Origin: a virus
Taxonomy: Duplodnaviria > Heunggongvirae > Uroviricota > Caudoviricetes
Reading direction: 5' to 3' (one strand)
Length of the DNA stretch: 4,525 nucleotides
IMG/VR virus record: IMGVR_UViG_2671180411_000011
Of the stretch, positions 2,502 through 3,188 are shown in pieces. The notes beneath the pieces were generated by a model. The model made no database searches. It saw nothing but the letters and a program-made list of their open reading frames with translations, and had not been told where the DNA came from. Made by a program: the position numbers and the translations under genes. Every line of letters starts with the position of its first letter. Within the stretch, counting starts at the first letter, position 1.

Positions 2502-3188
2502 ATGACCCCAATAAACATATTTATGACAGTTGCTGATTTCAAACGGCCCAAATTGGAGCTCCCAAACGGGGCAAACAAACTACTACTGCACTCTTGCTGT
2601 GCTCCATGTTCCGGTGAGGTGATGGAGGCGCTTCAGGCCTCGGGAATCGACTACACCATCTTTTTCTACAACCCGAACATTCATCCTCAGAAAGAGTATT
2701 TAATTCGTAAGGATGAGAATATTCGCTTTGCTGAACAACACGGCGTGCCGTTTATTGATGCTGATTACGACACAGACAACTGGTTTGAACGAGCCAAAGG
2801 AATGGAATGGGAGCCCGAACGAGGGATCCGTTGCACCATGTGTTTTGACATGCGTTTTGAGCGGACAGCGCTGTACGCCGCTGAAAATGGTTTCAGTGTG
2901 ATCAGCAGTTCACTGGGCATTTCACGCTGGAAAAATATGCAGCAGGTTAACGACTGTGGGCGGCGAGCCGTCGCGCATTATCCGGGCATGGTGTACTGGG
3001 ATTATAACTGGCGCAAGCAGGGCGGCTCGTCCCGTATGATTGAAATCAGCAAGCGCGAAAAATTCTATCAGCAGGAATATTGTGGCTGTGTGTATTCTCT
3101 GCGCGATACCAATCTACACCGCAAATCTCAGGGACGCCCTCTTATCAAAATTGGTCAACTCCACTACGGTAAAGAAGAGAAGGAGTGA
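2502..3188 (+). CDS. queH: QueH-like (DUF208) epoxyqueuosine reductase family protein; alternative start ATG at 2523
   Basis: 228-aa ORF with N-terminal [11 protein letters not shown] and C-terminal YCGC, motifs I recognise as hallmarks of the QueH/DUF208 family, plus an internal RCTMC. No Shine-Dalgarno before either candidate ATG. Call is from motif recall, not alignment. Confidence 0.7.

Follow-up and report, generated by a model that had tools for sequence, protein, structure and literature searches.

A queH gene in a lambdoid prophage of Escherichia coli, a candidate for a cobalamin-independent last step of queuosine synthesis

The early-right operon of a Rac-like lambdoid E. coli prophage contains a gene for the epoxyqueuosine reductase QueH, an ordinary member of a known family whose enzyme class, chemistry, and name are established. 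The gene very probably encodes an active enzyme, and the overall explanation that we favor, and consider probable, is that of a working prophage-borne QueH, which would make the last step of queuosine synthesis corrinoid-independent. QueH is a cobalamin-independent iron-sulfur enzyme, and in the host it would reduce oQ to Q at position 34 of tRNA-Asn, tRNA-Asp, tRNA-His, and tRNA-Tyr, so that the cassette containing it would represent a second, B12-independent route beside QueG. We surmise that capture of the gene brought its native extended −10 promoter and a leader lacking a Shine-Dalgarno (SD) sequence along with it. The resulting cassette travels in lambdoid prophages of the Rac-like and Qin-like types, where it occupies a variable slot directly upstream of hok/sok. 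The gene would be transcribed from its own promoter in a lysogen; in the lytic cycle, transcripts reading through from the early-right operon would reach it too.

The window, that is, the whole 4,525-nucleotide stretch of IMG/VR record IMGVR_UViG_2671180411_000011 that was analyzed, is part of a Rac-like lambdoid E. coli prophage. Positions 2355-3250 show 99.9% identity to E. coli strain FDAARGOS_944, the prophage of which adjoins ybhA and possesses an integrase, a repressor/Cro pair, ydaU/ydaV-type replication genes, a lysis cassette, and head genes. The genes of the window are as follows.

to about 1010: O-like (ydaU-type) replication gene, partly N-masked at 734-996
to 1503: DnaC/IstB-like ydaV
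1518-1940: DUF977/Ren-like gene
1941/1998-2354: zinc-ribbon gene, phrog_1621
2502/2523-3188, plus strand: QueH open reading frame
3246-3571: hok/sok (Rfam sok, E=3.9e-27 at 3246-3421; Hok Pfam, E=1e-22)
3821-4108: phrog_340 gene
from 4147: NinB-like DUF1367 gene

Within the early-right operon, the QueH reading frame occupies the region equivalent to ren/nin. A sequence-only reading had placed it between replication genes and a hok locus, and this is indeed its position, with the ydaU/ydaV-type, Ren-like, and phrog_1621 genes upstream and hok/sok downstream. The same reading had it away from the genes of queuosine biosynthesis, which is also correct, since none occurs in 24.9 kb of near-identical annotated prophage.

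Both ends of the window depart from the FDAARGOS_944 prophage. A run of 263 Ns at 734-996 hides the central part of the O-like replication gene. Left of this run, the window is not base-for-base collinear with that prophage, and identity resumes at 997. Toward the right end, the NinB-like DUF1367 gene is broken at about 4453, where the window again diverges. The sequence that follows (4453-4525; TTGAGGTGTACTGGCAATAGCGGACAC...) is found again in eight IMG/VR loci, in one of which it lies beside an IS3-family transposase pair (HTH_Tnp_1 plus rve), and it is probably the end of an insertion sequence inserted in this gene. The hok/sok locus is a complete type I toxin-antitoxin system with a mok-like upstream reading frame from 3359, and a promoter-like TTGATT-18-TAGAAT lies at 3210-3239, just 5′ of the start of the sok RNA model. 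No terminator is predicted between QueH and this locus, and QueH transcripts may read into it.

The assignment to QueH (DUF208), which had been made from the letters alone, is borne out by profile comparison. The protein matches Pfam PF02677 (QueH; IPR003828, formerly DUF208) with an E-value of 1.9e-65; its 220.6 bits, where the cut-off is 23.5, lie far above chance, and the match is full length, residues 27-201 covering profile positions 1-174 of 175. Thermotoga maritima QueH (PDB 7lc5) is matched at E=5e-22 with about 31% identity, and every Cys motif is aligned. The two motifs on which the assignment had been based are located at 2580-2612 (the 11-residue motif) and 3078-3089 (YCGC), and an RCTMC motif lies at 2829-2843. 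The coding sequence and its ligand motifs are as follows, residues being numbered from ATG 2502.

2523..3188, plus strand: QueH coding sequence, 221 amino acids from ATG 2523 (228 from ATG 2502)
2595..2609, plus strand: CCAPC motif; C32, C33, and C36 correspond to T. maritima C9, C10, and D13
2832..2843, plus strand: CxxC motif; C111 and C114, aligning with T. maritima RCERC
3081..3089, plus strand: CGC motif; C194 and C196, aligning with T. maritima YCGC

All seven predicted metal-ligand positions (C32, C33, C36, C111, C114, C194, and C196) are kept. The CCAPC, CxxC, and CGC motifs are invariant in 18 of 18 proteobacterial orthologues, and CCAPC also occurs in distant QueH proteins from Staphylococcus, Listeria, a gut bacterium, and Acinetobacter. 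For T. maritima QueH, PDB entries exist for C9S and D13N mutants and for a complex with queuosine; because structures of these two mutants exist, the positions equivalent to those of CCAPC can be regarded as functional. The protein was modeled using AlphaFold2, which on a shallow alignment of 18 sequences gave a model of moderate confidence (mean pLDDT 75.5; pTM 0.77). Foldseek comparison of this model with the PDB returned T. maritima QueH (including 7lc5/7lc7) as all five best matches, the predicted fold superposing with a target-normalized TM of 0.82-0.84 and an rmsd of 2.5-2.7 Å. The next matches, at TM below 0.55, were TtuA-type and argininosuccinate-synthetase-type proteins (adenine-nucleotide-alpha-hydrolase-type enzymes). 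The comparison with Thermotoga QueH is thus congruent with the assignment, as the Cys ligands align as well.

RefSeq/PGAP already names this gene "epoxyqueuosine reductase QueH." Phage resources present a different picture. PHROG 3217, listed as of "unknown function" and 188 positions long, matches only residues 41-228 (window 2622-3188); it appears to have been built from N-truncated gene calls beginning at Met41, which are without CCAPC. It is because this family is truncated and listed as unknown that phage annotation pipelines miss QueH, and the record of phage HannyBb annotates the gene as a "hypothetical protein." The internal start at Met41 (ATG 2622) is preceded by an SD-like GGTGAGGTG (−7.8 kcal/mol). 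We rejected it as an annotation artefact, since the CCAPC ligands would be lost and GGTGAGGTG encodes an invariant G-E-V.

Two in-frame ATG codons, at 2502 and 2523, are candidates for the true start. As had been noticed from the sequence, neither possesses an SD: the best duplex with the anti-SD is +0.6 kcal/mol for the former and +0.7 kcal/mol for the latter, compared with −5.5 to −10.3 kcal/mol for seven neighboring starts. The N-termini of the orthologues line up with M8, which is ATG 2523; PGAP uses this codon in the near-identical prophage; and in one IMG/VR copy an extra C between the two codons puts ATG 2502 out of frame. For these reasons ATG 2523 is the likelier start, while ATG 2502 is conserved in the prophage clade. 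The elements proposed to lie upstream are as follows.

2480..2488, plus strand: putative extended −10, TGcTACACT (hexamer 2483-2488, TG 2480-2481), proposed on the basis of conservation
2495..2522, plus strand: inferred 5′ leader, AU-rich, without an SD, and containing the alternative in-frame ATG 2502

The −10-like TACACT that had been pointed out at 2483-2488 is present, and it is extended by a TG at 2480-2481. The nine-nucleotide element TGcTACACT is invariant in all eight upstream variants found among 83 prophage copies. In about ten other genera of Enterobacterales, chromosomal queH is preceded by a TGnTAnnnT at a similar distance (about −43 ± 2 in orthologues); among Scandinavium, Kluyvera, four Enterobacter species, Symbiopectobacterium, Brenneria, Acerihabitans, and Arsenophonus, its position relative to the start codon ranges from −42 to −49. 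Around it the sequence in those genera has diverged so far that it can not be aligned with the window. Because the element has been kept at a nearly fixed distance while its flanks diverged, we read it as the phylogenetic footprint of a real queH promoter. No clear −35 was seen, and a simple sigma-70 scan did not report the extended −10.

Transcription from this putative promoter would start at about 2494-2496, 6-8 nt past the −10, leaving 6-8 nt to ATG 2502 and 27-29 nt to ATG 2523. The proposal of a near-leaderless transcript would therefore hold for ATG 2502 with its 6-8 nt; from ATG 2523, which is favored, there would be a leader of about 27 nt. Folding of 2495-2560 is weak (−5.7 kcal/mol) and no better than that of shuffled sequence. 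The reading that we favor, if ATG 2523 is used, is that the leader is SD-less and unstructured rather than absent. Chromosomal queH genes of Scandinavium, Kluyvera, Enterobacter, and Providencia likewise lack an SD; in Erwinia, Serratia, and Photorhabdus an SD is present. Since the genes of several genera share it, the SD-less arrangement would have been inherited with the gene and is no peculiarity of the phage.

The lack of an SD means that translation of QueH may be weak. Carried to its extreme, the near-zero anti-SD duplex energy at both candidate starts would suggest a reading frame that is not usefully translated and is decaying. We give this next to no credence, because Enterobacter, Kluyvera, Scandinavium, and Providencia show the same arrangement at their chromosomal queH, the leader is predicted to be unstructured, and selection on the protein, described below, is strongly purifying.

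A riboswitch was also considered for the leader. By eye the sequence GUUCUAAUGCUACAC resembles a preQ1-I loop, but it was rejected as such: no Rfam family, preQ1-I, -II, and -III included, matched the leader at E<=10 when either the whole window or 2340-2600 alone was searched, and the conserved letters fit the −10 element instead. In E. coli, the preQ1-I riboswitch of type III that has been published lies upstream of yhhQ, not queH (PMC10622847).

Together with its promoter element and leader, the gene forms a unit which recurs in otherwise different prophages.

2445..3190, plus strand: QueH cassette of about 745 bp (promoter, short leader, and coding sequence), common to different prophage backbones

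The left junction was defined by aligning the window with the Rac prophage of E. coli 042, phage HannyBb, E. albertii, and two QueH-less phages. The common sequence ends at about 2445-2452, and the genes upstream of it differ among 042 Rac, HannyBb, and E. albertii. The cassette is found behind three different upstream genes. On the right, the match with Qin-type copies breaks off after window position 3194, and the segment 3191-3231 is present on its own in QueH-less genomes; the cassette thus ends within a few bases of the QueH stop codon. Related phages and prophages hold other genes in the same slot upstream of hok. The gene had been called a moron. In favor of this, it is present or absent at one slot in related phages, and it may bring a promoter of its own, the putative −10 element being conserved; against it, no terminator-like site is predicted in 1900-3900, and for this reason the cassette meets only part of the classical definition. 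With its base composition equal to that of the flanks and no terminator, it is only a partly autonomous unit.

Next to the cassette lies an 86-nt intergenic block (2355-2440) which recurs at 89-94% identity in further phages of E. coli, Stx2a phages and Rac-SA53 among them; one Actinobacillus phage record also has it. It belongs to the phage backbone and elsewhere, including in Stx2 phages, stands before unrelated genes. At the end of the block stands AGGAG and, after it, a GC-rich hairpin that is capped by a GAAA loop and has no U-tract. In other phages this hairpin reads CCGCCCGAAAGGGCGG, from which the window differs by one mismatch.

Using as threshold the presence of at least 80% of the cassette, we found it in 985 of 5426 complete E. 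coli genomes (about 18%), nearly always as a single chromosomal copy. Carriers include O157:H7, O104:H4, ST131, APEC O1, and 042, and also the laboratory strains E. coli B (REL606, ATCC 11303, and AS19), E. coli C, and Crooks ATCC 8739. In B, C, and Crooks the prophage concerned is Qin-like, and the cassette is flanked there by a methyltransferase fragment and hokD. The Qin prophage of K-12 MG1655 has no QueH, and the slot upstream of its hokD is filled by relB-relE. Three of the 1182 places at which the cassette was located are on plasmids, which might be phage-plasmids or carry integrated prophage fragments. IMG/VR contains 189 viral contigs with the cassette, and among 50,697 deposited phage records the only clear carrier is the isolated temperate phage HannyBb; the other protein-level QueH matches in the phage collection come from unverified metagenomic or bacterial-looking records. 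In the searchable literature we found no discussion of a prophage-borne QueH in E. coli.

The closest relatives of the prophage protein are other Enterobacterales QueH proteins (80-92% identity). Where their gene neighborhoods were examined, they proved to be non-phage and chromosomal: tmcA/purC in Providencia, SDR/MBL in Scandinavium, and DeoR/GH28 in Enterobacter. A metagenomic relative has LysR and acetyltransferase genes as neighbors. In a neighbor-joining tree the prophage copies constitute one clade (100% bootstrap) nested among chromosomal genes of Enterobacteriaceae, with Scandinavium QueH as its weakly supported sister (54%). This topology indicates a single capture of the gene, from the chromosome of a member of the Enterobacteriaceae. 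Nucleotide identity to the Scandinavium gene is 86.6% with a dS of about 0.9, from which we conclude that the donor is not among the sampled species.

Selection on the prophage gene, as judged from substitution patterns, is strongly purifying. Eighty-three full-length copies, all of them intact with neither frameshift nor premature stop, comprise 18 nucleotide alleles and only six proteins; they segregate at 48 synonymous and eight nonsynonymous sites (pN/pS 0.044). Pairwise dN/dS between prophage copies is 0.02-0.08 with dS up to 0.29, and against chromosomal orthologues dN/dS is 0.01-0.04. Because this constraint equals that of the chromosomal orthologues, the prophage copy appears to have been kept as a working protein with no sign of a change in function.

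These data bear on the idea that the enzyme is a neutral passenger, functional but redundant with QueG, which hitch-hikes with the hok/sok addiction module and has no selected effect. It accords with the universality of queG in E. coli, with the constant location of the cassette beside hok, and with the fact that no phenotype is known. A passenger of this kind would, however, be expected to collect nonsynonymous changes and disruptions, and neither the pN/pS value nor the 83 intact copies, at the dS just given, conform to this; moreover, the cassette has been retained in at least three different upstream contexts. We consider a neutral passenger improbable.

They bear equally on the suggestion, raised in the sequence-only reading, that the QueH fold was recruited to a substrate other than oQ-tRNA, such as a 7-deazaguanine base in DNA or a different epoxide. 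A phage is an unusual context for a tRNA-modification enzyme, and other queuosine-pathway genes are known in phages for DNA modification. Against this stand the 87-92% identity to chromosomal orthologues, the retention of every ligand residue, and a constraint as strong as theirs, without acceleration on the prophage branch. A role in DNA modification was rejected, as DpdA/Tgt-like proteins, folE, queD, queE, and queC (and with them preQ0 synthesis) are unannotated in the 24.9 kb of near-identical prophage; around QueH in 042, HannyBb, and E. coli B, likewise, no 7-deazaguanine cluster genes are annotated. A defense function was also rejected, neither QueH nor its neighbors matching any PADLOC model. 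The suggestion of a new substrate is thus unsupported, and we regard it as very improbable.

This leads back to an enzyme of queuosine maturation. Every one of the 5426 complete E. coli genomes, and hence every carrier of the cassette, possesses queG. E. coli QueG is cobalamin-dependent (PMC4646009), whereas QueH is a cobalamin-independent oQ reductase (PMC5615194). According to a statement in PMC6850298, which cites Frey et al. 1988, cells in glucose-salts medium without B12 keep oQ34 and those in rich medium make Q34. Since QueG is universal and depends on cobalamin, and oQ accumulates without B12, the cassette would free Q34 maturation from the supply of corrinoids. That B12-independence of this step is the benefit for which the cassette has been selected is about an even call. 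Only tentatively, at slightly less than even chance, do we propose that whether E. coli needs B12 to finish queuosine varies from strain to strain, with a prophage deciding the matter: lysogens would make Q34 without corrinoids while K-12 would accumulate oQ34, and QueH would be a lysogenic-conversion gene, of advantage to the lysogen or the phage when corrinoids are scarce.

The benefit might instead fall in the lytic cycle, with early-right read-through raising QueH so that host tRNAs are fully Q-modified during translation of the phage late genes. In favor of this, the gene is oriented like the early-right operon, comes directly after the replication genes with no terminator predicted in between, and is found in an isolated phage, HannyBb. 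Yet QueH brings its own predicted promoter, which is conserved with the chromosomal orthologues, and the tRNA genes of the prophage are not of the Q family. Many carriers, furthermore, are defective prophages of the Rac/Qin type, and strong purifying selection on QueH persists nonetheless, which argues for a benefit to the lysogen. A helper of the lytic cycle is accordingly an unlikely explanation, if less so than a neutral passenger, and a working QueH serving B12-independent maturation remains our preferred reading. Phage tRNAs were examined as possible substrates and rejected. Past its nin region, the near-identical prophage has four tRNA genes (15423-15733 of that locus), for which ARAGORN gives the anticodons CAU, UCU, UGU, and UCC (the CAU one being tRNA-Ile according to PGAP), and none of the four belongs to the Q family.

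A strain-dependent B12-independence of Q synthesis is a modest idea and a directly testable one. If the cassette is active, the textbook B12 requirement for converting oQ to Q would hold for K-12 but not for B, C, Crooks, or many pathogens, which would matter for studies of tRNA modification and for comparisons between laboratory strains. It would also be a clear-cut case of an enzyme of tRNA maturation that is carried by a temperate phage and acts on the tRNAs of the host.

Among known systems, the chromosomal QueH proteins of Scandinavium, Kluyvera, and Enterobacter resemble the prophage protein most closely, with 87-92% amino acid identity, equal length, and the same N-terminus; their genes also share the extended −10 at about −43 and the lack of an SD. 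The difference lies in location: chromosomal queH of Enterobacteriaceae sits among SDR, LysR, DeoR, and GH28 genes, whereas the prophage copy sits beside hok/sok and moves between backbones. T. maritima QueH (PDB 7lc5, 7lc7, and 9deu) has the same fold, as far as the model can be relied upon, and the same CC..., CxxC, and CxC motifs. It possesses Asp13 where the prophage protein and most QueH sampled have Cys (CCAPC). The prophage protein, moreover, is extended at its N-terminus by about 19 residues, among which R15, L20, and P21 are conserved; this extension is common to proteobacterial QueH.

E. coli QueG (b4166) carries out the same oQ34 to Q34 reaction on the same tRNAs (PMC9508795, PMC4646009). 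It employs cobalamin and two [4Fe-4S] clusters, whereas QueH is iron-dependent, cobalamin-independent, and of unrelated fold (PMC5615194, PMC13443448). Staphylococcus aureus, like cassette-bearing E. coli, has both of these non-orthologous oQ reductases in one genome; the authors of that study call them redundant and read their distinct expression as reflecting cofactor availability (PMC13443448). There, QueG and QueH are part of the organism's own tRNA-modification set, with no phage origin mentioned, whereas in E. coli QueH is strain-variable and prophage-borne. With respect to the lambdoid cargo slot between the replication/ren-type genes and hok, relB-relE occupies it in K-12 Qin, three small open reading frames in phage vB_EcoS-640R1, and QueH here. 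In contrast to toxin-antitoxin, exclusion, or virulence genes, the cargo in this case is a housekeeping-type tRNA-modification enzyme, carried without a terminator of its own.
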